Assembly (NCBI GenBank): GCA_027923505.1
Contig: BROI01000007.1
Span: 620,001-684,000 of the forward strand
DNA: 64,000 nucleotides
Origin: Mayamaea pseudoterrestris
Taxonomy: Eukaryota
Reading direction: 5' to 3'
Within the stretch, counting starts at the first letter, position 1. Every line of letters begins with the position of its first letter. Of this stretch, positions 346-38,764 are shown one piece after another. The notes beneath the pieces were generated by a model. The model saw nothing but the letters and a program-made list of their open reading frames with translations. It was not told where the DNA came from and did not search any database. Made by a program: the position numbers and the translations under genes.

Positions 346-1526
346 GAGACTGGTGACAAGTTGTCACCAAATACATTGCCATCCCCTGAGACACCAGCCA
401 AGCCTACCATCTTGTAGCGCAGCCTGAATAATGATGTTGGCACCATTCTGGTGTAATTTGGGCACCTACAGGGCCTGCTGTAAGGGCGTTTGAATGTCAC
501 GGCATCTGCGGGCTGAGACTGGTGACAAGTTGTCACCAAATACATTGCCATCCCCTGAGACACCAGCCAGGCATATCATCTTGTAGCTCAGACTGAATAA
601 TGATGTTGGCACCATTCTGGTGTAATTTGAGCACCTACAGGGCCTGTGTTAGGAGAGTTTGAATGTCACGGCATCTGCAGGCTGAGACTGGTGACAAGTT
701 GTCACCAAATACATTGCCAACCCCTGAGACACAAGCCCAGATTACCATCTGGTAGCGCAGCCTGAATAAGGATGTTGGCTCCATTTGGGTGTATTTTGGG
801 CACCTACAGGGCTTGCTGTAGGGGCGTTTGAATGTCACGGCATCTGCAGGCTGAGACTGGTGACAAGTTGTCACAAAATACATTGCCATTCCCTGAGACA
901 CCAGCCAGGCATACCATCTTGTAGCGCAGCGGAATTATGATGTAGGCACCATTTTGGTGTAATTTGGTCAACTACAGGGCTTGTTGTAGGGGCGTTTGAA
1001 TGTCACAGCATCTGCGGGCTGAGACTGGTGACAAGTTGTCACCAAATACATTGCCATCCCCTGAGACACCAGCCAAGCATACCATCTTGTAGCGCAGCCT
1101 GAATAATGATGTTGGCACCATTCTGGTGTAATTTGGGCACCTACAGGGCCTGCTGTAGGGGCGTTTGAATGTCACGGCATCTGCGGGCTGAGACTGGTGA
1201 CAAGTTGTCACCAAATACATTGCCATCCCCTGAGACACCAGCCAAGCCTACCATCTTGTAGCGCAGCCTGAATAATGATGTTGGCACCATTCTGGTGTAT
1301 TTTGGGCACCTACAGGGCTTGCTGTAGGGGCGTTTGAATGTCACGGCATCTGCGGGCTGAGACTGGTGACAAGTTGTCACCAAATACATTGCCATCCCCT
1401 GAGACACCAGCCAGGCATATCATCTTGTAGCGCAGCCTGAATAATGATGTTGGCACCATTCTGGTGTAATTTGGGCACCTACAGGGCTTGCTGTAGGGGC
1501 GTTTGAATGTCACGGCATCTGCGGGC
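346..1526. repeat. 169-bp tandem satellite, 7 units (left arm)
   Basis: GAGACTGGTGACAAGTTGTCAC starts at 346, 515, 684, 853, 1021, 1190, 1359. Confidence 0.97.
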
Positions 1527-1529
1527 CAA

Positions 1530-1924
1530 TGACAAGTCGCAGAGCGGCGAAGTCAAGAGCCCGAACCCTAATTAGCTTGTGTCGAGTCCGCAGCTGTCGT
1601 ATGTGACATGTGAATGAAGAAAGTGCGCAACCGTCGTGTGGATGCGTTGTATGAATGGAACGACCAGTTACGACTGATGTAATGTGATTGAAAGAAACGG
1701 ATTGATCGGATGATCTTCCGAGTGGTCGATGTAGCGATGTAGCGATAAGCTCACAATATAGAACTACTAGTTTGCGACGAGAGTGCAGTCGTATTCGTGT
1801 AGTGGCGAGCGCAAGACTATTCGACGAGCCATCTCCATCAAGAGCTGTACAGACCGTGGCCAAGGACCCTGTATCGGAGCTTTTTGGAGGTAAGACGTTG
1901 ACTGCGAAATCGTCAACGGTGTTA
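1530..1924 (+). repeat. 5' LTR of element 1 (TGACA...TGTTA)
   Basis: Matches 7841-8235 at offset 6311; hairpin CGTTGAC/GTCAACG near the 3' end. Confidence 0.93.
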
Positions 1925-2021
1925 GATTAACATTTCAGTGCTTTGAGAGCGAGAACGAGCGAGGGAGCTATCGTGACACATTCGTCTGCAGCGAGTCCGA
2001 TTCCTCTGATCAACCTCCACC

Positions 2022-5000
2022 ATGACGACGATTGATGTAACGACCTACAAGCGTGCCGTCGGTAAAGTCTTCGATATTCCGTGGCTCGCAGCGTCCGCAG
2101 CTTGGGACCCAAACGACCCTACCGCAGTATGCTTCGAATCCGAGGAACTCACGACTGCGGAGGCGATGGCCGAGTTGTCGGAACAAGACGTGACGAACAT
2201 TAAGAACCAGTACCAGTGGTCGACGATACGAACAAGCCGATTGCGCAAGCTCATGAGTTGGATTCACGAGCAACGTCGGACGACTGCGCAATGGCAAGAC
2301 TTGGAGAAAGACCAGATTACGAGCCGAGACCTCCCAGTAGCGCCGGGGTCACCGACAGCAGGCAACCGCAGTTTCGGAGACTTTAGCGTTATCGGAGGCA
2401 ACGACACCACGACGAAGCGACACGACATCAAGCTGGATCTGAAGACCATGCTGGAGCTCAAGAACGACCGCAAGTTCTGCTCCTACTGGCGGGCCTTCAA
2501 GAACCGCATGCGAAGCGAGCGACTTGGCTATTTTTGGGACGACGAGTTCAAGGCACCAGCCGCACTCGACCCCGAATTCGCCGAGTATAAGTATCAGTGT
2601 TCGAAGCTTTTAGCGGCGCTCGAGTATACCTGCAAGACACCGCAGAGCAAGCTCATTGTCCGCAAGCACATCGACAGCGCGAATGCCTCAGCGTGCATTG
2701 CAGAGTTGGAGGCGACATTCCTCGATGGGATGGCGCGCAAGTTGGATCTACGTACGGCCGAAGACGAATGGCGCAATTACACCCTCGATGCGAGTTACGC
2801 CAAATCTCTCGTCAATTGGCTCATCCAGTGGTCCAGCAAGGAAGAGAACTACAATGACTACGCCGAGGAAACCGAGCTACTTACAGCAAGCACGAAGCGT
2901 CAGATTTTGGAACGCGCGGTTTTCCGCCATGCGGATATGGCAGCGGCGGTGAACATGGCGCTGATCGAAGAGTCCAAGACCGGCAACCCGATGGCGTACA
3001 CCCAGTTTTGGAACCTCCTGAACGACGTCGCACGTCAATCTGACAATCGTCGTGGCATCAAGGAGACCGAGAAGCGTCAGGCGAACCAATCTGAGCAGAC
3101 CAAGAAAGAGAAGGAGAAGACGAAGAAGGCAAGTGCGAACAATTCCCAGTCTACGCCAAGTAGCAGCAACAATCAGCAGTCCAATCAGGGGGGCGGTGGT
3201 CGCGGCGACTTGAGCACGGGACGAGGCGGCGGCGGCGGCCGCGGTCGGGGAGATACTCGTTCGTATGTTCGCAGCTATGCCGACACGAAGACGATCGAAA
3301 TTCCCAGCGACGTGAATGCGACGATACCACCAAACACGTGGCGACTCCTTACCCGCGATCAGCAACATGAAGTGTTTGAACGCCGTGGTACGAGTCGAGC
3401 GGCCAGTGCTGCAGGTGGTTCGACATCAGCAACACAGGCAGGCACCACGCAGACGACGAGTACAACACGCAACGCAAACGTCGCAGCCACTTCATCAGCG
3501 GCAACGACGGCGAGTGCGGCGACCGAGCGTGTGAACAACACCAGCCGTGGCTCAGCGATGCGAAGTTTCTTAGGTCCAGACCAGCCCACGACTACGACTC
3601 GGGGAGCGAATATCGCTCAGAGTCGCAAGTACAAAGTCGCGAGCATTGACTTGGATAAGCATTCAGCGTCGACTGTCGATCGCGGCGCGAGTGGCGGAGT
3701 ATGGGGAGCGGACGGCCGCATCCTTACCGAGGACAAGTTCCACAAGATTGAAGTCACTGGAGTCGGTGGTCTCAAACTTCCGGACCTGTCTACCGTCACA
3801 GCAGTCGCCAAGCTTAAGAGCACCAAGGGTTGGGTCGTCGGCGAGTTCCATAATTACGCATATTCTGGAACCGGCAAGACGATTCATTCGAGTATGCAGA
3901 TGGAAGCCTTCGGACTTCATGTCAACGACAAGCATTACAACTTTGGTGGCAAGTTACGAATCGAAACGCCAGACGGATACAAGTTTATGCTCGGGATGGA
4001 AAGTGGCATGGCGACCTTGCCAATGTTTCCAGTGTCGGCGCATGAGCTTCACACCTTACCTCGGGTCATGATGACCTTCGATGGGCCTTGGGATCCGAAT
4101 GAGTTTGACGTCGAGCCGACCGAGGACGACGACTATGACTCTTCGGATGACGATGACGACGAGGACGACGTACCGGACTTGTTGTCGCGCGACGAAGACG
4201 ACGAAGACAGTGACGACGAAGAGGGCTTCACGCGCGTGACACGCTCGCGTACGCGGAATCGCACCCATCGTCAGAGCAACGTGACTTATACGAATCTCGG
4301 ACACGACAATCAACCTGTTTACACCGAGAAGGAGCTGAATGTTTGTGCCGTCGTACAGAAGTACAATGCGGATCTCGTCTATCAGCCCTACAAGTCTATC
4401 CTGCCAAAGAAACCTGATATCGACGCATTGCTGCCGAACTTTGCATGGTACCCGGCGCAGACGATCAAGGATACTTTGCGCCACAGCACGCAGTTCAACA
4501 TGCACGAGCGCCGATACCCCCCACGAATGCATCGAAAGAGCCGATTCCTGAACGTCTACCGTCTAGATGATCGAGTGGCCCATGACACCATGTTCTTCGA
4601 CGAACCAGCCATGGATGATCATATCGACGGACATGCAGGGTGCACATGCGTGCAGCTATTCTATGGTTGTCGCAGTCAGATCATTGTCGTGTATCCCATG
4701 CGGACGAAAGGTGACGTACCGAAACGATTCCGTGATTTCATCCGCGAGTTTGGAGCTCCGTTGGAAGTCTTCTCGGATAATGCGAAAGAAGCGATGAGTG
4801 CCGAGTTTGACGAAGTAATGCGCGAGTTCATGATTCGCCGTCGTCATACATCGGAGCCGTACTACCAGAATCAAAATCCAGCCGAGCGCATCATCGGGCA
4901 CGTAAAGGAAAGTCATGAACGACTTATGGACCGAACGGGCACTCCGGCATGCTTCTGGCTACGCGCTTTACTCTTTCAGACCGAGATGTACCGTCATTTG

Positions 5001-7886
5001 TCGCATCCTGCCTTGGACGGCAAGTCTCCCATCGAGTTTATCACTGGGCAAGTCCCCGACGTGTCGAAGTATTTGCATTTTCGTTGGTTTGAAATTGTCA
5101 ACTACTTTGTCAAGGATGTCGAGGCCCCGGGTACCCGCCAGCGCGCGGCGTACTGGCTTGGTCCCAACACGACGTGCGGAGACGACCTGACGTACTTCAT
5201 CTGCGATTGCGAGACCCACGAGATCATGACGCGATCGGTTTGCTTACCCCGAAACGACCCAAAATTTTTGAACCTTCGCGTACCGGCACCTGCTTCCCCA
5301 GTCATGAAAGAAGGGGAGCCGCGTCTCTATACCGTACCTGGTCTAGGTGGCGAGATCCTTATGCCGGAAATGATCAAGAAGATTACCGACGCCGACAGCA
5401 GAGACGATGATTCTTTCATTCCTGACGAAGACGATACCCCTTTGGTCGAGACGGTGGAATACCCGGAAGACGACGATATGACCGACGGGGAGGAAGATCC
5501 GAATCCTGCCGATGACGACGACGACAAGCCGAAGAAGAAGAACATCAATCCGTGGCGCAAACTCCCGAAGTATGCACCCGATGAACTTATCGGCAAGTCG
5601 TTTCTCATGAAGACGGACGACGGGCAAGAAGTTCGAGCGACCGTCATGAGCAAGCTGAACAACCGCGACGCCCAGAACCATCAGAACATTAAAATGATGC
5701 TGAAGCTTGGTAACGGCGAAGCGGACGAAGTCATGTCGTATGTCGAGGTTTCCGATCTCTACGAGGCCGAAGTGAACCAAGACATGGCGAATCCTGAGCG
5801 TAAATGGTTCTTCAAGGAGATTCTAGACCATCAGGGTCCGCTGACGAGCAAGTCGAAGAACTGGAAGCACTCCAAGTGGAACGTCCTTGTACAATGGGAC
5901 GATGGATCCAAGACTTGGGAGCCTCTCAACGCGATGATCGAAAGCGACAAAGTATCAGTGGCAGCCTACGCGCAAAAGCATAATCTTCTCGACAAGGACG
6001 GATGGGCATCGTTGAATCGATGGGCCCGGAACGCCAAGAAGGTTGCGCGCAAGGTGGCGACCGCCCGAATGGAGCAGCAGAAGAACGGACCGCGCTACAA
6101 GTTTGGAGTCCAAGTACCCCGAGATTGGAAGGAAGCGCGGCGTTTGCAGGAAGCTGCAGGGCACACGAAGTGGACGGATGCGGAAGGCGTGGAGCTTGCG
6201 AACCTGGACGAGTACGAGACGTTTCAAGATCTTGGTCCGAGTTCCACCACAACACCACCAACTGGTTACCAAAAGATCCGAGTCCATTTTGTGTACGATG
6301 TCAAGCACGATTTGCGATACAAGGCACGTCTCGTTGCAGGCGGCCACATGACGAAAGACAACGACGATGCCTACTCCAGTGTTATCTCATTGAAGGCAAT
6401 GCGTCTAGCTCTCGTCATTGGAGAAGCGAACGGCAAGAAGTGCATGGTCGGTGACATTGGGAATGCTTATCTCGAAGCGTTCACCAAGGAGAAGGTATAC
6501 TTCGTTGGAGGCCCCGAGTTCGGGGAGCGCGAAGGACACATCCTGGTCATCGTCAAGGCTTTGTACGGATTGCGAACGAGCGGAGCACGATTTCACGAAC
6601 GCTTAGCCGACGCCCTACTTGCGGAAGGGTGGAAGCCGTCCTATTGCGATTCCGATCTGTGGATCAAGGACGCTGGCGACAGCTACGACTACCTCTGTGT
6701 ATGGGTCGACGATCTGTTGAATATTTCAGACGATCCAGCAGCGTTCTTCAAGATGCTAGAGGAGAAGTACAAGTTTAAGCTCAAAGGTGTTGGACATCCC
6801 GAGTATCATCTCGGCGGTGACTTTGGACGAGACCCTGACGGAACTCTTTACTGGTCGGCCAAGACCTACGTTGCGAAACTCTTGGCGCAGTACGAGCGTT
6901 TGTTTGAAGGTCCTCCGAAGAAGTACTCATCACCAATCGACAAAGACGATCATCCAGAACTTGACCAAAGCGAGCTACTGAACGACCAAGAGAAGAAGAT
7001 TTACCAGTCTCTAGTCGGAGCACTTCAGTGGGCGATTACTTTGGGACGATTTGACATTGCCGTTGCAGTTGTGAGTCTGTCGCGATTCCGTGTGGAGCCG
7101 CGCAAGGGACACCTGCAGCGGGTGAAGCGAGTCTGTGGATATTTGCGAGAGTTACCGGACGCAGCAATCCGTTTCCGTACGAAGTGGCCAGCCAACGAGG
7201 AGCACTTCGGCACCATGGAGGAACAAGATTGGGAGCGCAGCGTTTACGGGAAGGACGGAGTTGATGAGATGTTGGACGTCTACCCACCGCCAAAGGGTGT
7301 GACTGTACGAACATCAACTTTCGAGGATGCGTGTCTCATGCATTGCATGGTGACAGGCAAGTCATTGGAAGGAGTTTTGTCATTTGTCAACCAGACGCCT
7401 GTCGACTGGCATTGCAAACTCCAGGCTACAGTCGAGACTGCGACCTTCGGATCGGAATTCGGCGTAGCAAAGAGTGGAACGGATATCAGCATTTCTCTAC
7501 GCGCGTCGCTCATGGCTATGGGCGTACCATTGGAGAAGTCTGCCTGGATGTACGGAGACAACCAAGCAGTGATTACACAATCTACAATCCCGAGTTCGAC
7601 ATTGTCCAAGCGACACAATGCGTTGGCCTACCATCGTGTTCGTTGGGCAGTTGCTGCGGGGATTATCAAGTTTGTAAAGATTGACGGAAAGGAGAACATT
7701 GCGGACGTACTGACGAAGTACCTGCCGTACTGTGATGCGATGCCATTGCTCAAGCCAGTATTGTTTTGGCGCGGCGATACATCGTATGCGATTGTGAAGG
7801 ACAAGAATGCGGCTACGACGAGCAGCGTACCCGAGGGGAGTGACAAGTCGCAGAGCGGCGAAGTCAAGAGCCCGAACCCTAATTAG
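2022..7886 (+). CDS. Gag-Pol polyprotein (1954 aa) of element 1
   Basis: Protease-like VDRGASGG; integrase D (HDTMF), D (SDNAKE), E (NPAER); RT YKARLVAGG, KALYGL, WVDDLL; RNase H FEDA/GSEF/GDNQ/IADVLTK; stop lies inside the 3' LTR. Confidence 0.96.
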   Translation: MTTIDVTTYKRAVGKVFDIPWLAASAAWDPNDPTAVCFESEELTTAEAMAELSEQDVTNIKNQYQWSTIRTSRLRKLMSWIHEQRRTTAQWQDLEKDQITSRDLPVAPGSPTAGNRSFGDFSVIGGNDTTTKRHDIKLDLKTMLELKNDRKFCSYWRAFKNRMRSERLGYFWDDEFKAPAALDPEFAEYKYQCSKLLAALEYTCKTPQSKLIVRKHIDSANASACIAELEATFLDGMARKLDLRTAEDEWRNYTLDASYAKSLVNWLIQWSSKEENYNDYAEETELLTASTKRQILERAVFRHADMAAAVNMALIEESKTGNPMAYTQFWNLLNDVARQSDNRRGIKETEKRQANQSEQTKKEKEKTKKASANNSQSTPSSSNNQQSNQGGGGRGDLSTGRGGGGGRGRGDTRSYVRSYADTKTIEIPSDVNATIPPNTWRLLTRDQQHEVFERRGTSRAASAAGGSTSATQAGTTQTTSTTRNANVAATSSAATTASAATERVNNTSRGSAMRSFLGPDQPTTTTRGANIAQSRKYKVASIDLDKHSASTVDRGASGGVWGADGRILTEDKFHKIEVTGVGGLKLPDLSTVTAVAKLKSTKGWVVGEFHNYAYSGTGKTIHSSMQMEAFGLHVNDKHYNFGGKLRIETPDGYKFMLGMESGMATLPMFPVSAHELHTLPRVMMTFDGPWDPNEFDVEPTEDDDYDSSDDDDDEDDVPDLLSRDEDDEDSDDEEGFTRVTRSRTRNRTHRQSNVTYTNLGHDNQPVYTEKELNVCAVVQKYNADLVYQPYKSILPKKPDIDALLPNFAWYPAQTIKDTLRHSTQFNMHERRYPPRMHRKSRFLNVYRLDDRVAHDTMFFDEPAMDDHIDGHAGCTCVQLFYGCRSQIIVVYPMRTKGDVPKRFRDFIREFGAPLEVFSDNAKEAMSAEFDEVMREFMIRRRHTSEPYYQNQNPAERIIGHVKESHERLMDRTGTPACFWLRALLFQTEMYRHLSHPALDGKSPIEFITGQVPDVSKYLHFRWFEIVNYFVKDVEAPGTRQRAAYWLGPNTTCGDDLTYFICDCETHEIMTRSVCLPRNDPKFLNLRVPAPASPVMKEGEPRLYTVPGLGGEILMPEMIKKITDADSRDDDSFIPDEDDTPLVETVEYPEDDDMTDGEEDPNPADDDDDKPKKKNINPWRKLPKYAPDELIGKSFLMKTDDGQEVRATVMSKLNNRDAQNHQNIKMMLKLGNGEADEVMSYVEVSDLYEAEVNQDMANPERKWFFKEILDHQGPLTSKSKNWKHSKWNVLVQWDDGSKTWEPLNAMIESDKVSVAAYAQKHNLLDKDGWASLNRWARNAKKVARKVATARMEQQKNGPRYKFGVQVPRDWKEARRLQEAAGHTKWTDAEGVELANLDEYETFQDLGPSSTTTPPTGYQKIRVHFVYDVKHDLRYKARLVAGGHMTKDNDDAYSSVISLKAMRLALVIGEANGKKCMVGDIGNAYLEAFTKEKVYFVGGPEFGEREGHILVIVKALYGLRTSGARFHERLADALLAEGWKPSYCDSDLWIKDAGDSYDYLCVWVDDLLNISDDPAAFFKMLEEKYKFKLKGVGHPEYHLGGDFGRDPDGTLYWSAKTYVAKLLAQYERLFEGPPKKYSSPIDKDDHPELDQSELLNDQEKKIYQSLVGALQWAITLGRFDIAVAVVSLSRFRVEPRKGHLQRVKRVCGYLRELPDAAIRFRTKWPANEEHFGTMEEQDWERSVYGKDGVDEMLDVYPPPKGVTVRTSTFEDACLMHCMVTGKSLEGVLSFVNQTPVDWHCKLQATVETATFGSEFGVAKSGTDISISLRASLMAMGVPLEKSAWMYGDNQAVITQSTIPSSTLSKRHNALAYHRVRWAVAAGIIKFVKIDGKENIADVLTKYLPYCDAMPLLKPVLFWRGDTSYAIVKDKNAATTSSVPEGSDKSQSGEVKSPNPN

Positions 7887-8235
7887 CTTGTGTCGAGTCC
7901 GCAGCTGTCGTATGTGACATGTGAATGAAGAAAGTGCGCAACCGTCGTGTGGATGCGTTGTATGAATGGAACGACCAGTTACGACTGATGTAATGTGATT
8001 GAAAGAAACGGATTGATCGGATGATCTTCCGAGTGGTCGATGTAGCGATGTAGCGATAAGCTCACAATATAGAACTACTAGTTTGCGACGAGAGTGCAGT
8101 CGTATTCGTGTAGTGGCGAGCGCAAGACTATTCGACGAGCCATCTCCATCAAGAGCTGTACAGACCGTGGCCAAGGACCCTGTATCGGAGCTTTTTGGAG
8201 GTAAGACGTTGACTGCGAAATCGTCAACGGTGTTA
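7841..8235 (+). repeat. 3' LTR of element 1
   Basis: Direct repeat of 1530-1924, preceded by the polypurine tract. Confidence 0.93.
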
Positions 8236-8598
8236 GGCTGAGACTGGTGACAAGTTGTCACCAAATACATTGCCATCCCCTGAGACACCAGCCAAGCCTA
8301 CCATCTTGTAGCGCAGCCTGAATAATGATGTTGGCACCATTCTGGTGTAATTTGGGCACCTACAGGGCCTGCTGTAGGGGCGTTTGAATGTCATGGCATC
8401 TGCGGGCTGAGACTGGTGACAAGTTGTCACCAAATACATTGCCATCCCCTGAGACACCAGCCAAGCCTACCATCTTGTAGCGCAGCCTGAATAATGATGT
8501 TGGCACCATTCTGGTGTATTTTGGGCACCTACAGGGCTTGCTGTAGGGGCGTTTGAATGTCACGGCATCTGCGGGCTGAGACTGGTGACAAGTTGTCA
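8236..8598. repeat. 169-bp tandem satellite, about 2.1 units (right arm)
   Basis: Units at 8240, 8409, 8578; resumes in phase with the left arm. Confidence 0.96.
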
Positions 8599-10181
8599 TT
8601 GACCTGTCAAACGCCCCATGCCCTGGCCACCCAAATACCCAATGAGTCAGGCAAAACATGTCCAGGGTATGCCATTGACAGGTGCAGAGTCTCAAATGGT
8701 GCAAAAAGGACTGCCTGGAGGCTGACACCATGGGTACGGCCTCCACGGTGGGTATGGCCAACACCACAAGTTGTAGACTCTGACCTGTCATACGCCCCAT
8801 GCCCTGGCCCCCAAAATACCCAATGTGTCAGGCAAAACATGTCCAGGGTATGCCATTGACAGGTGCATAGCCTCAAATGGTGCAAAAAGGACTGCCTGGA
8901 GGCTGACACCATGGGTACGGCCTCCACGGTGGGTATGGCCAACACCACAAGTTGTCGATTCTGACCTGTCAAACGCCCCATGCCCTGGCCACCCAAATAC
9001 CCAATGAGTCAGGCAAAACATGTCCAGGGTATGCCATTGACAGGTGCAGAGTCTCAAATGGTGCAAAAGGGACTGCCTGGAGGCTGACACCATGGGTACG
9101 GCCTCCACGGTGGGTATGGCCAACACCACAAGTTGTATATTCTGACCTGTCAAACGCCCCATGCCCTGGCCACCAAAACACCCCTAATGTGTCAGGCAAA
9201 ACATGTCCAGGGTATGCCATTGACAGGTGCAGAGCCTCAAATGGTGCAAAAAGGACTGCCTGGAGGCTGACACCATGGGTACGGCCTCCACGGTGGGTAT
9301 GGCCAACACCACAAGTTGTCGATTCTGACCTGTCAAACGCCCCATGCCCTGGCCACCCAAATACCCAATGAGTCAGGCAAAACATGTCCAGGGTATGCCA
9401 TTGACAGGTGCAGAGTCTCAAATGGTGCAAACAGGACTGCCTGGAGGCTGACACCATGGGTACGGCCTCCACGGTGGGTATGGCCAACACCACAAGTTGT
9501 CGATTCTGACCTGTCAAACGCCCCATGCCCTGGCCACCCAAATACCCAATGAGTCAGGCAAAACATGTCCAGGGTATGCCATTGACAGGTGCAGAGTCTC
9601 AAATGGTGCAAAAAGGACTGCCTGGAGGCTGACACCATGGGTACGGCCTCCACGGTGGGTATGGCCAACACCACAAGTTGTCGATTCTGACCTGTCAAAC
9701 GCCCCATGCCCTGGCCACCCAAATACCCAATGAGTCAGGCAAAACATGTCCAGGGTATGCCATTGACAGGTGCATAGTCTCAAATGGTGCAAAAAGGACT
9801 GCCTGGAGGCTGACACCATGGGTACGGCCTCCACGGTGGGTATGGCCAACACCACAAGTTGTCGATTCTTACCTGTCAAACGCCCCATGCCCTGGCCACC
9901 CAAATACCCAATGAGTCAGGCAAAACATGTCCAGGGTATGCCATTGACAGGTGCAGAGTCTCAAATGGTGCAAAAAGGACTGCCTGGAGGCTGACACCAT
10001 GGGTACGGCCTCCACGGTGGGTATGGCCAACACCACAAGTTGTCGATTCTGACCTGTCAAACGCCCCATGCCCTGGCCACCCAAATACCCAATGAGTCAG
10101 GCAAAACATGTCCAGGGTATGCCATTGACAGGTGCAGAGTCTTAAATGGTGCAAAAAGGAATGCCTGGAGGCTGACACCAT
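8599..10181 (+). repeat. 181-bp tandem satellite, about 8.7 homogeneous units
   Basis: TGACCTGTCA (or a 1-nt variant) starts at 8600, 8781, 8962, 9143, 9326, 9507, 9688, 9869, 10050. Confidence 0.97.
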
Positions 10182-33553: not shown

Positions 33554-33750
33554 TGTTGAGCATGGATGAGAACCCAAACCGAAGCGGCAGCGGTGACGTC
33601 ACGAAGACGGTCAGTAGGCGTGGTAGCGGCGGCGACCGAAGAGGGTGGGAGCGTCTTCGGAGAAAATAAGTAAAGTGGTTTTATTGACTCTGTTCTGCTT
33701 AATCATTAGTGTCGCTTCAAGGGCGCGCAAGATATATTCTAGATCCAACA
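33554..33750 (+). repeat. 5' LTR of element 2 (197 bp)
   Basis: First 60 and last about 92 nt identical to the 3' LTR; central block differs. Confidence 0.93.
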
Positions 33751-33777
33751 TTTTCTCCAAGAAGCGAGTGAAAAGAC

Positions 33778-36700
33778 ATGTCTTCGACGAGCAATACTCC
33801 GACGACAGGAGCGGCGTCGAGCGGTGGAGGTGCACCTCCCGCTCCGCCAGCAAGCGAAGGAAACCGACGCAACCGTCATTATCGTCGTGGGAATCGTGCT
33901 GGGAATCGTTCCGGGAATCAAGGCAATGGTAACAGACTCAACGGACCGAGTCGTGCGCCGAGTGGAAATTTCCAAGGAAGCGAGCCGACGCTCGCTGGAT
34001 TCATCTACGACTATAACGGTTCGCGCGATCCCGATGGATTCATCCGTACGACGAACGAGATCATCACTTTCGTCGGGCGCTCCTACAAGAAATATACCAA
34101 GGAGCTGCTCAAGGGCATGCGCAACGTGGAACTGGAGATTCCTGACGAGCCTGCACGTCCAACGAAGGATGCCGACACGACGGACTCGGACTGGTCCATA
34201 ATGCTCGAGGAATACAAGGCCGACAAGAAAGAGCATGTCGAGCGCGTGCGTGTATACTCCGACTTCCTCGCTGGTCTCTACGCCGTGTTGCATGGACAAT
34301 GCACGGAGCGTATGAAGGATCGTGTCAAGTCGCACGCCAAGTTCCGAGACGCCGAGGAGGACACGGACGGAATTAAGTTGCTGGCGATTATCAAGGAGAT
34401 CTCGCATACGTACGAAGGGCGCTGCAAACTTGTGGATCAAGTCGTGGACATTCAAGCTGAGTTGTTCGGACGTACTCAAGGAGCGCGCGAAAGCCTGCAG
34501 AAATATTACGAAAGCATGGTCACGCTGGCAGACGTGGCGAAGGCGGTTGGCGTCACGATGCACAACGAGATTGTGGCGTTGAACATTGCCAAGGATGACA
34601 ATCGTAACAAGGCGAACAAGGAGGATATCAAGGCCGCCGAAGAGCTCGAGCTTGCGATGCTTTTCGTGCGTGGCGCAACGGGCGAATACGCTGGGTATTG
34701 CAAGCACTTGCGCAACTGCTACCTCGACGGGCACGACAACTTCCCGTTGACGATCCACGATGCATACAACATCATGCAGCGTCGTGAGCATGCGGATGGA
34801 GAAGCCACGTTGCCAACGAACGAGGGCGTGGCGTTTCACACGACTGGTACAGCGCGTGACCCTCCCAGATGCTGGACCTGTCAACAGGTTGGTCATGTGC
34901 AGCGAGACTGTCCTACGAGAACGGAGTCTACGGAGAGTGCGCCGGCTGCAGAGGCTAGTGGGGCGCAGCACTTCACGCTGGGTAGCGAGGAAGAAAGCGA
35001 TGACGACGATGAGGTCGGATACATGTTCGCGCAGCCGCCGAAGGTGAACATCTCGAAGAAGGCTGTGCTCTTGGACAATCAGTCGACAGTGGATCTGTTC
35101 TGCAACGCCAAGATGCTGACGAACATTCGCCCGGTGCCAACGTGGATGGTGATCAAGTGCAACGCTGGTACAGTAAGGACGAACATGATGGGCGACCTGG
35201 AGGGCTATGGTCCGGTGTGGTGGTATCCGCAGGGACTGGCGAACATTTTGAGTTTGGCGCAAGTCCGCAAGAAGTTTACCGTGGAGTATCTCATGCACGG
35301 CGTGGATCGTCCAATGTTCGTTGTGGAGAAGCCGGATGGTAAGCAGCGAGAGTTTGTCGAGACTGACTCTGGGCTGTATGTTTGCGAGAGCTTTTCGAAG
35401 GGCAAGCGCAGCGATGTCAAGGATGGAGTGGCGATGTTGACTACGGTAGACGATAACCGTACTAACTACACCAATGATGACTATTTACGCGCTGTTAGAG
35501 CTAGGGAACTGCAAATCAAAATTGGACGGCCAAGCCTCAAGGATTACCTGCGCATCGTTACTAGCAATCAGTTGCCGAACTGTCCTGTGACGAAGGCCGA
35601 CATCCTGGCTGCTGAGCACATCTTTGGACCAGATGTTGGCTCGTTAAAAGGAAAGACGACGCGTCGCGCGTCGCATCTGGTGAAGCCTGCGATTGTTGAG
35701 CAGCTTCCACCGGCTATCATGAGTCGCTATCGAGACGTTACTCTTTGTGCTGACATCATGTATATCAACAAAGTCCCTATGTTGGTGACGTTCTCCCGCA
35801 GCATTCGTTTTGCTACGGTTGAGGTGATTCAAAACCGTACGCTTCCGGTTATGTTGAAGGCAATCGAGTCTGTGTTGAAGATTTACGCACGCGGTGGGTT
35901 CCGTGTCGTCGCGGCTCTGATGGATGGGGAGTTCGCTCCAATGCTTGGCGCGTTGGCTGATCTCGGAGTGGCGCTCAATGCGACATCTGAGGATGAACAC
36001 GTTGGCGAAATTGAACGTTTTATCCGTGTCGTGAAAGAACGGGTGCGCGCGACATACAACACGTTGCCATTTAAGCACGTGCCGGCACGCTTGGTTATCG
36101 AAATGACGAAGTCTGCCGTGTTTTGGTTGAATGCGTTTCCGAACGAGCGTGGCATTTCGAAGGATCTCAGTCCACGCACTATTGTGACTGGTCAGACAGT
36201 TGACTTTAATCGGCATTGCAAGTATGAATTTGGTCAGTATGTGCAAACGCATGAGTCGCACAGCAATGACATGCAGGCGCGCACGATCGGTGCGCTGGCT
36301 CTGCGCCCGACTGGTAATGTGCAGGGTGGGTTTTATTTCCTCAGTTTGTCTTCGGGCAAAGTTCTGAATCGTGGGCACGCTACGCCTTTGCCCATGCCTG
36401 ATGATGTCATTGAGCGCGTGCATCGTCTCGCTCGTCAACAGAAGGCCAATCCGGGCATCGTGTTCATGGACCGCCACCGTGTTGCGGAGGCTGCTGAGCC
36501 AGTCATGTGGCACGAAGATGACGCCGAGGATGATGATGACTCTGATTATGATGACGACGCTTCTCGCGGTGACGACGACTCTGCCGGCGGAAGCGAAGGA
36601 GTGAATGCGACCGATGACGACGACGACGACGACGATGGTGCTGACGGCGCAATCGAAGGAGTGCCGAACGACGAGGATGGTGAGGCCATTGACGGCGAAC

Positions 36701-38624
36701 TTGACGACGCGCCAGCCGTGGATGATGGCGAAATTGAAGGAGTGCCCGATGAAGGCGAAATTGAAGGAGTGCCAGCTGCTGCAGACGAAGAGGATTTCGA
36801 TGCGCGCTATGGCCCACGCACTGGTCGGTATGGCCTGCGTGCGCGCAAACCTCGCTCGTTCGCTCATTTGTTCACGCTCGACGCTGCAGAGGAAGTGTCG
36901 GAGCCACTCGTCACGGCACAGATGAATATGCGACAAGGTTTAAAGGCTTTTGGCGATGCTGGAGTGGAGGCAGTGCGCAAGGAAATGCAGCAGCTACACG
37001 ACAGGCACGTCATGAAGGCAGTCCCCAATGCACTCTGACTCCGCAGCAGCGCAAGGACGCTCTGGCGTATTTGATGTTTCTCAAGCGCAAGAGATGCGGG
37101 ACTGTGAAGGGACGCGGATGCGCGGATGGACGCAAGCAACGAGCATACACTGCAAAGGAAGACGCAGCATCTCCAACGATAGCGACAGAGGCCATCTTTC
37201 TGACAGCTATCATTGACGCTATGGAAGGGCGCGAGGTTGCTGTGGTTGATGTACCGGGTGCTTTCATGCAAGCGGAAATGGATGAGTTGGTGCACGTTCG
37301 TTTCACTGGGAAGATGGTGGAGCTACTGTTGGAAATTGATCGCGAGATGTACGAGCCTTGCGTCACAATGGAGAATGGCGAGAAAGTCATGTATGTTGAA
37401 TTACTCATGGCGCTTTATGGTACGCTTCGAGCAGCGCGACTATTCTGGGAGAAGTTGTCCGCAAAATTGCTTGAGTGGGGCTTCGAGAAGAACCCGTACG
37501 ATCCGTGTGTGTGCAACAAGATTGTCAATGGGAAGCAAATCACCGTGGGATGGCACGTGGACGATTTGAAGATTTCGCACGTCGACGTGAGCGTAGTGGA
37601 TGAGTTCATCGCGCAGATGGATGAGGAGTTTGGCAAGGAGACTCCAATGAATAAGTCACGCGGAAAAGTGCACGACTACCTCGGCATGGTATTGGACTAT
37701 ACTAAGCCTGGAGAAGTAGCAATCAACATGGTTGACTATGTGAAGAACATCCTGCATCATGCGCCAGACGACATGGATGGAACGGCAGCTACTCCGGCAG
37801 CCAGTCACTTGTTTCAGATATCGGAAAATCCTGTCATGTTGAGCGAAGCGAAGAAGCAGATTTTTGTGACGATTGTGATGCAGTGTCTGTATCTGAGTCA
37901 GCGAGCGCGACCGGATATTCGCACAGCGATTTCTTTCTTGAGCACGAGGCTGCAGCAGCCTGACGAAGACGACTATAAGAAGGCTGCAAGAGTGATTAAA
38001 TATTTACGCGGAAGCGTGGACATGGTGTTGACGCTGAAGGCGGACCAGTCCGGGATAGTCCAGTGGTGGGTGGATGCGTCGTACGCGGTGCACCCAGACA
38101 TGAAGGGTCACACTGGTGGAACAATGACACTTGGCCAAGGATCAGTGTACAGTACGTCGGCTAAACAGAAGTTGGTAACAAGAAGCTCGACGGAGAGCGA
38201 AGTTGTGGGAGTTCATGATGTGCTACCGCAGTTGCTGTGGACAGGATATTTTCTGAAGGCGCAAGGTTTCGGGGTCAAAGACACGAAATTGTATCAAGAC
38301 AATATGAGTTCAATGCTGTTGGAAAAGAATGGCAGAAGCTCAAGTACAAAGCGCACGCGACACATGAATGTTCGGTACTTCTTTGTGAAAGATCGCGTGG
38401 CAGCTGGTGAAGTCAACATTGAGCATTGTCCGACCGGAGACATGGTCGCGGATTTCTTCACGAAACCATTGCAGGGAGCCCAGTTTGGCAAGCTCCGCAA
38501 CCTGGTTATGAATCTGGCCTCGAGCAGTAAGTACTACTCGGCCCAAAGGAGTGTGTTGAGCATGGATGAGAACCCAAACCGAAGCGGCAGCGGTGACGTC
38601 ACGAAGACGGTCACATTTAAGTAA
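33778..38624 (+). pseudogene. Gag-Pol of element 2 with a -1 frameshift near 37031
   Basis: CCHC knuckle CWTCQQVGHVQRDC, LLDNQST protease, ADIMY/MDGEF/EIER integrase, WHVDDLK RT, WVDASYA RNase H. Confidence 0.9.
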
Positions 38625-38764
38625 GCGCGGTAAGCGGCAACCGAAGGAGTGGATCGAGGACGATCACTTCTTGGAGAAAATAAGTAAAGTGGTTTTATTG
38701 ACTCTGTTCTGCTTAATCATTAGTGTCGCTTCAAGGGCGCGCAAGATATATTCTAGATCCAACA
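38554..38764 (+). repeat. 3' LTR of element 2 (211 bp)
   Basis: Direct repeat of the 5' LTR; carries the pol stop codon. Confidence 0.93.

Follow-up and report, generated by a model that had tools for sequence, protein, structure and literature searches.

A 64,000-bp stretch of the genome of the diatom Mayamaea pseudoterrestris (contig BROI01000007.1, positions 620,001 to 684,000; hereafter, the window) contains an intact, young Ty1/copia retrotransposon, element 1, that lies in satellite DNA and encodes, between its integrase and reverse transcriptase (RT), a two-part module predicted to consist of a Tudor/SH3-like beta-barrel followed by a chromo-fold domain. Genome-wide, the family of element 1 (family A) and three further families carrying the module (B, C and D) all have insertions in satellite DNA, whereas a module-less copia family, represented in the window by element 2, has none, and the family A insertions cluster at one phase of the 169-bp satellite unit. 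The module is the likely but unproven guide of insertion.

The module and its predicted fold

Element 1 and the repeats around it comprise the following features:
1530-8235, + strand: long terminal repeat (LTR) element, a family A copy, with a single gag-pol open reading frame (ORF) between the LTRs
1530-1924, + strand: 5' LTR, 395 bp, termini TG...TA, identical to the 3' LTR
2022-7886, + strand: gag-pol ORF, 1954 amino acids (aa), open throughout, in copia order (integrase before RT)
4716-4850, + strand: integrase catalytic core, partial (Pfam rve match, E 0.064, under the curated cut-off)
5562-5774, + strand: predicted small beta-barrel of the Tudor/SH3-like type, aa 1181-1251, with a helix linking it to the chromodomain
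5802-5993, + strand: predicted chromo-fold domain, aa 1261-1324, three strands, the first of them followed by an inserted loop, and C-terminal helices
6258-6893, + strand: copia-type RT (RVT_2), aa 1413-1624 (Pfam, E 8.7e-21)
7841-8235, + strand: 3' LTR, 395 bp, directly preceded by a purine tract (7831-7840)
1-346: 180-bp repeat, related to the 181-bp satellite
345-1526, no strand: 169-bp satellite, 7 copies, left of element 1, junction at monomer position 168
8236-8598, no strand: 169-bp satellite, 2.1 copies, right of element 1, junction at monomer position 167
8588-10181, no strand: 181-bp satellite array, 8.8 copies

The LTRs, the integrase upstream of the RT (its D-D-E motifs were picked out by eye in the ORF translation) and the copia-type RT place element 1 in Ty1/copia; the RVT_2 match and the upstream integrase rule out membership in the chromoviruses, a Ty3/gypsy clade. 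Element 1 is probably a CoDi-I/CoDi-A-type diatom element; a diatom host is suggested by gene content and by the relatives of its module, which cluster with Fragilaria crotonensis proteins. Its two 5-bp flanks (1525-1529 and 8236-8240) differ, so that it has no intact target-site duplication.

The sequence-only reading that singled out this element described a chromodomain-pattern peptide at 5802-5936. The peptide is in frame exactly there (K1261-M1305), between the integrase core and the RT, but the domain is longer, with helices that reach ~5993, and is preceded by a second domain, the barrel. Proof at the level of sequence failed: a Pfam search of the element 1 protein yielded no match to Chromo, only 2/91 relatives matched Chromo at E 0.05, and PDB sequence searches gave no chromodomain match, the NKG2D matches being due to chance. 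Among the language-model neighbours of the chromo part, Chromo clusters appear at 0.81, which is a lead only.

The AlphaFold check that the same reading had proposed does yield a chromo fold, with structural matches dominated by chromo and chromoshadow proteins. The structure model of aa 1181-1345, built with an alignment of 91 relatives, has a predicted local distance difference test score (pLDDT) of 91.7 for the barrel and chromodomain together, compared with 84.8 for the chromo part alone. When the chromo part alone is searched with VIA-align, chromo and chromoshadow proteins occupy ranks 1-36 among 50 (Z 4.0-7.0), including Chp1 (Z 6.4, root-mean-square deviation (rmsd) 2.7, 52 aligned) and dHP1 (Z 6.2, rmsd 2.3, 50 aligned), and the first unrelated row has Z 3.9; among the proteins counted are GEN1, New1, eEF3 and ZMET2, which carry chromodomains. 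Because no single match reaches Z >=8, the case for the fold rests on this uniform ranking. Foldseek returned mostly chromodomains for the chromo part, and no Foldseek match had an E-value <0.001. In the model, a three-stranded sheet is predicted to lie against a C-terminal helix, as is characteristic of the chromodomain superfamily, and the second part of the module almost certainly adopts a chromo fold. In the two-domain model, the second half again matches chromo and chromoshadow domains, and the first half matches Tudor/SH3-like barrels, namely, the ERCC6L2 Tudor (VIA-align, model 2-71: Z 6.2, rmsd 2.5, 58 aligned) as well as the SMN, BAHCC1 and SETDB1 Tudors and SH3-like folds (Z ~5).

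The barrel and the chromodomain are conserved together in all four module-bearing families, as judged by hidden Markov model (HMM) matches, and the module is strongly conserved, with W1292 present in 91/91 relatives and several positions above 90%. Two of the three aromatic residues that form the methyl-lysine cage of HP1 (labelled according to PMC3350952) have counterparts in the domain. W1262 matches HP1 Y24 and is aromatic in 86% of the 91 relatives, its placement following from ranges aligned with dHP1 that start at 6:22 and 80:22 and thus reach residue 24 provided that there is no gap in the first three residues; the invariant W1292 matches HP1 W45, as placed by the chromo-box motif of PMC3350952. 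Two proteins, P0022 and P0023, contain the chromo part without the upstream barrel, and P0026 contains two matches to the whole module.

Insertions in satellite DNA and their phase

Element 1 had been read as sitting in satellite DNA, and the 169-bp satellite indeed lies on both sides of it. This satellite makes up ~4.9% of the 30.6 Mb genome (8,816 matches of a 16-base motif, computed at one motif per unit) and forms several islands per contig; the genome is gene-dense. The control family is represented in the window by element 2, in which, in agreement with the sequence-only reading, neither the barrel nor the chromodomain was found:
33554-38764, + strand: element 2, a distant copia family without the module
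33554-33750: LTR, 197 bp
33772-37038 and 36765-38624: two overlapping ORFs
38554-38764: LTR, 211 bp

The RT of element 2 is 22-26% identical to those of families A, C and D. Its unequal LTRs are 88% identical, with the differences in one central patch; it is located between two divergent genes and has no matching duplication.

For family A, 74 exact LTR starts and 71 ends were collected, and the DNA around all of them was examined; in families B, C and D, the module was confirmed by HMM, and the samples comprise 30/43 LTR matches for D and 39/41 listed matches (130 candidates), with 101-bp flanks, for C. Distinct 3' flanks lie directly in the 169-bp satellite in 10/34 cases for family A, a count that includes 2 shared LTRs among the 34 and 1 weak one among the 10 (strict count, 9/32), in 8/45 for family B and in 0/31 for the element-2 family (Fisher test against the latter: p=0.002 for A and p=0.018 for B). 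If every exact 3'-LTR match is counted, satellite flanks number 9/54 for family B and 0/39 for element 2. Outer junctions in any satellite or in five known elements amount to 55/80 in A, 29/61 in B, 18/30 in D and 0/46 in element 2, tallies of junctions, not events, that include tandem and self-nested copies. All compared copies are young, with LTRs mostly 96-100% identical. When the base rate is tripled to allow for purging of insertions from genes, as if they were tolerated in just one third of the genome, family A is still enriched (p 0.035) and element 2 is depleted (p 0.008), so that this control may partly avoid repeats. Thus, insertion of the element 1 family with respect to the satellite, tested genome-wide as the sequence-only reading had suggested, is non-random and enriched.

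The insertions also show a phase. With unit numbering starting at window position 1020 and each position taken as the start of the target duplication, 21/28 junctions and 13/18 loci of family A fall at positions 155-2 (17/169 positions), in both orientations. Among the family A loci with matching duplications on both sides, 5/6 are in this interval, at 155, 164, 166, 167 and 168. When distinct position-orientation classes are compared, 10/16 are in the interval (scan p 1e-4); one site is at 28 (27 in the class scan), the count being the same either way. Families B and D together have 5/11 classes in the interval defined on family A (p 0.003), and B, C and D together have 5/15 (p 0.013). One family D and one family B junction with truncated LTR ends are left out of the phase counts.

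Two local causes of the phase were considered and not favoured. A target-sequence matrix from 54-131 other junctions, a small set with little information, does not favour the interval. An 8-bp resemblance between the LTR start and a satellite palindrome was discounted, given that insertions of family B, with a different LTR start, fall in this interval too. This 17-base near-perfect palindrome, at positions 8-24 of the 169-bp unit (window 1027-1043), has a variability of 0-5%, which places it with the most constant parts of the unit. The 9 bases at its core are found again in the 181-bp unit (window 9311-9319), where all four CpGs of that unit and, likewise, 2/3 hand-mapped insertions lie within ~30 bp of it; the core common to the two units is a possible shared protein site.

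Several further observations concern the satellites and the families. At 4/10 of the family A satellite loci with both ends seen, matching duplications are absent. More widely, many elements are without matching target duplications, and the left flank of one copy can correspond to the right flank of a copy on another contig: C39 pairs with C27, C41 with C29 and the right flank in the window with C23 (G000 C23:520105, C39:3101/9778, C27:272754, C29:124111, C41:34686). Elements on different chromosomes may thus have undergone exchange, or the assembly may contain false joins; recombinant CoDi elements have been described in P. tricornutum (PMC2806351). The satellite island extends upstream of the window from ~612,800 (G000 C7:606212-619800; L112, L113) and holds a family B element with its 3' end in the satellite (position 161) and its 5' end inside an element-2 copy. 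Module-bearing elements also occur within 45-, 162-, 172-, 181- and 371-bp tandem repeats (L017, L021, L162, L174, L188, L244, L288). The LTR termini are non-canonical in two families, namely, TG...TA in family A and TT...AA in family B, and are TG...CA in families C and D and in element 2 (1530-1924; L112:2212-2524); the 8 bases after the 5' LTR are identical among families A, B and C. Head-to-tail pairs with the two LTRs 0-4 bases apart are present in the same three families (L018, L011/L012, L156, L313).

Proposed steering of insertion and its alternatives

The explanation we favour, at a little under even chances when taken as a whole, is that insertion is directed to silent chromatin with phased nucleosomes and that the module guides it. 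It is highly probable that the satellite bias arises at insertion and not only by later selection. That the module is the main determinant of the bias is reasonably likely and, if it is, action by reading chromatin is considerably more probable than action via a satellite-bound protein. The module would bring the integration complex to repeat chromatin that is silent and CG-methylated, probably through contacts with nucleosome or DNA surfaces and not through a complete methyl-lysine cage of three residues. Nucleosomes in phase with the 169-bp unit would then expose a single short stretch to strand transfer. The nucleosome core comprises 147 bp, and in the simplest version, this stretch is the linker, whose length of 169 - 147 = 22 bp is close to that of the insertion cluster.

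The state of the satellite is consistent with this. All four satellite CpGs have decayed, by 47% and 30% inside the interval 155-2 and by 26% and 11% outside it, against a background of 1.8% (336 monomers, which are not independent counts), so that the most decayed CpGs sit where insertions cluster. Decay of 11-47% compared with 1.8% points to CG methylation of the 169-bp satellite, which, by analogy with transposable element regions in P. tricornutum, where CG methylation occurs with H3K9me2/3 and H3K27me3 (PMC9998398), probably carries repressive marks. In other algae, methylation of linker DNA has been connected with DNMT5 (PMC9998398).

Other registers are conceivable. Two symmetric nucleosomal sites might be used, as in Ty1 (PMC7459421), and the distance of ~67 bp between the family A interval and the family C cluster fits such a two-site model; a further possibility is that a protein occupies the conserved palindrome. 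The literature search listing yielded nothing on nucleosome spacing in diatoms. More tentatively, the tandem Tudor-like and chromo module might dock on satellite-phased nucleosomes, with each family at its own fixed register, linker or nucleosome face. The original proposal of a copia lineage that uses a chromatin reader to target satellite DNA is therefore partly supported: the chromo fold and the non-random insertion bear it out, and a causal role of the domain and the reading of a methyl-histone mark are its hypothetical parts.

Several points weigh against steering by the module. The evidence from enrichment and phase is correlative and relies on one control family, which may itself favour unique DNA. 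The four families with the module are relatives of one another (RT 52-73% identical), so that domain and lineage are confounded. About 2/3 of the family A junctions lie outside the 169-bp satellite, and at the threefold base rate, family B is not enriched (p 0.33). Family C is weakly enriched (5/38, p 0.036; or, with two near-identical junctions counted as a single event, 4/37, p 0.10) and places 0/4 sites in the interval (59, 63, 68, 99), which contradicts a strict linker-only rule and leads us to reject a universal phase for all module families. The CpG decay counts lack independence because the monomers share ancestry and were sampled beside insertions. The third cage residue, HP1 Y48, corresponds to G1295, as placed by the +3 spacing from W1292 and not by atom coordinates (HP1 label from PMC3350952); this position is Gly in 84% and aromatic in 0% of the 91 relatives. 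The domain thus has the predicted chromo fold but, judged by its residues, is not a classical methyl-lysine reader, although an aromatic residue of the inserted loop (W1281, W1286) may substitute for the third cage residue. Finally, Tal1 targets centromeres without a chromodomain (PMC11735389; bioRxiv 2025.12.07.692804), and non-centrophilic ECR-like relatives in brown algae retain an intact one (bioRxiv 2025.12.07.692804), so that a chromodomain is neither required for targeting nor proof of it.

These comparisons lend themselves to a different account, in which another part of the integrase or element does the steering and the module has another job, such as binding the ends of the complementary DNA or keeping the intasome stable, or has simply been carried along by descent. 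The targets of Tal1 and Evade differ through a C-terminal K/R change (PMC11735389), and neither encodes a chromodomain; the brown algal elements keep theirs without centromere preference; and families A-D, although all carry the module, are not alike in enrichment and phase. We nevertheless consider this account rather unlikely, given the strong conservation of the module, including the invariant W1292, and the fact that all four module families reach the satellite and the module-less family does not. Another account, also quite unlikely, treats the domain as a chromoshadow-like adaptor that binds a host protein on the palindrome, with insertion beside that protein. Chromoshadow domains are at VIA-align ranks 2, 3, 8 and 12, tied with chromodomains, and in the two-domain model, one helix precedes the strands and two follow them, as described for shadow domains (PMC3350952), but the first cage aromatic, absent from shadow domains, is kept. 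The palindrome is well conserved, and the interval lies 12-28 bp to one side of its centre, with sites 28, 28, 40 and 41 at the mirror distance; a symmetric site, however, predicts two equal peaks, and 15 versus 4 classes are seen. Many insertions in other transposons and in unrelated satellites would also be left unexplained.

Without any steering, copies would persist where they are harmless, and satellite amplification, element recombination or assembly joins would multiply a few insertions. The satellite loci without matching duplications, the flanks that pair across contigs, the recombinants of P. tricornutum and the gene density of the genome all fit this explanation. It is nonetheless improbable: equally young element-2 copies have 0/46 junctions in repeats, selection is unable to pick a phase inside a neutral repeat, and intact duplications at five different positions and in both orientations, together with the use of the same interval by families B and D, argue for separate insertion events.

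Relation to known elements

The sequence-only reading suspected that the domain might already have been noted in CoDi elements, and so it was. Llorens et al. (2009) reported a putative C-terminal chromodomain in CoDi-A integrases (PMC2774666), and Ustyantsev et al. (2017) reported the same domain under the name CoDi-I and suggested heterochromatin targeting (PMC5348765). The domain at the CoDi integrase C-terminus, in diatom Ty1/copia elements like those described here, is therefore known; its published basis, in the available text of these reports, is sequence similarity only, without the fold, the upstream barrel or insertion data. Neither satellite enrichment nor phased insertion of CoDi elements was found in the literature search, which did not cover most subscription journals. 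Term searches of the available text of PMC3601003, PMC8147415 and bioRxiv 2026.09.17.752431 found nothing on the module domain.

With the chromoviruses, namely, MAGGY (group I) and the plant group II elements (PMC3350952), element 1 shares a chromo fold behind the integrase and, probably, an association with heterochromatin, but it differs in having the copia gene order and RT and a Tudor/SH3-like barrel before the chromodomain. The cages differ as well: element 1 keeps the first and second aromatics and loses the third, whereas group I keeps all three and, in group II, the first is missing, as is usually the third (PMC3350952). Tal1 (ALE4), a centrophilic copia element of Arabidopsis, likewise shows chromatin-based integration into tandem-repeat arrays (PMC11735389), but lacks a chromodomain and follows CENH3, whereas the family A bias is partial. 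Family A copies and the satellite islands are found at several places per contig, so that a centromeric role, which would call for one cluster per chromosome coinciding with CENH3, would be conjectural. Yeast Ty1 also integrates at fixed places relative to positioned nucleosomes, but it is tethered by a subunit of RNA polymerase III and uses two sites per nucleosome (PMC7459421), whereas in family A there is a single main site in each 169-bp unit.

Since 2009, the chromodomain of CoDi-A has been a conjecture drawn from sequence, and the genome of M. pseudoterrestris gives a natural test of it. If steering by the module is real, these elements would be a copia counterpart of chromovirus targeting, independently evolved, and the positions of their insertions would at the same time map the chromatin of the satellite. 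Should the predictions hold, chromodomain-guided integration would have arisen separately in copia elements, with a different reader design, and would help to explain the build-up of silent repeat islands in compact diatom genomes.

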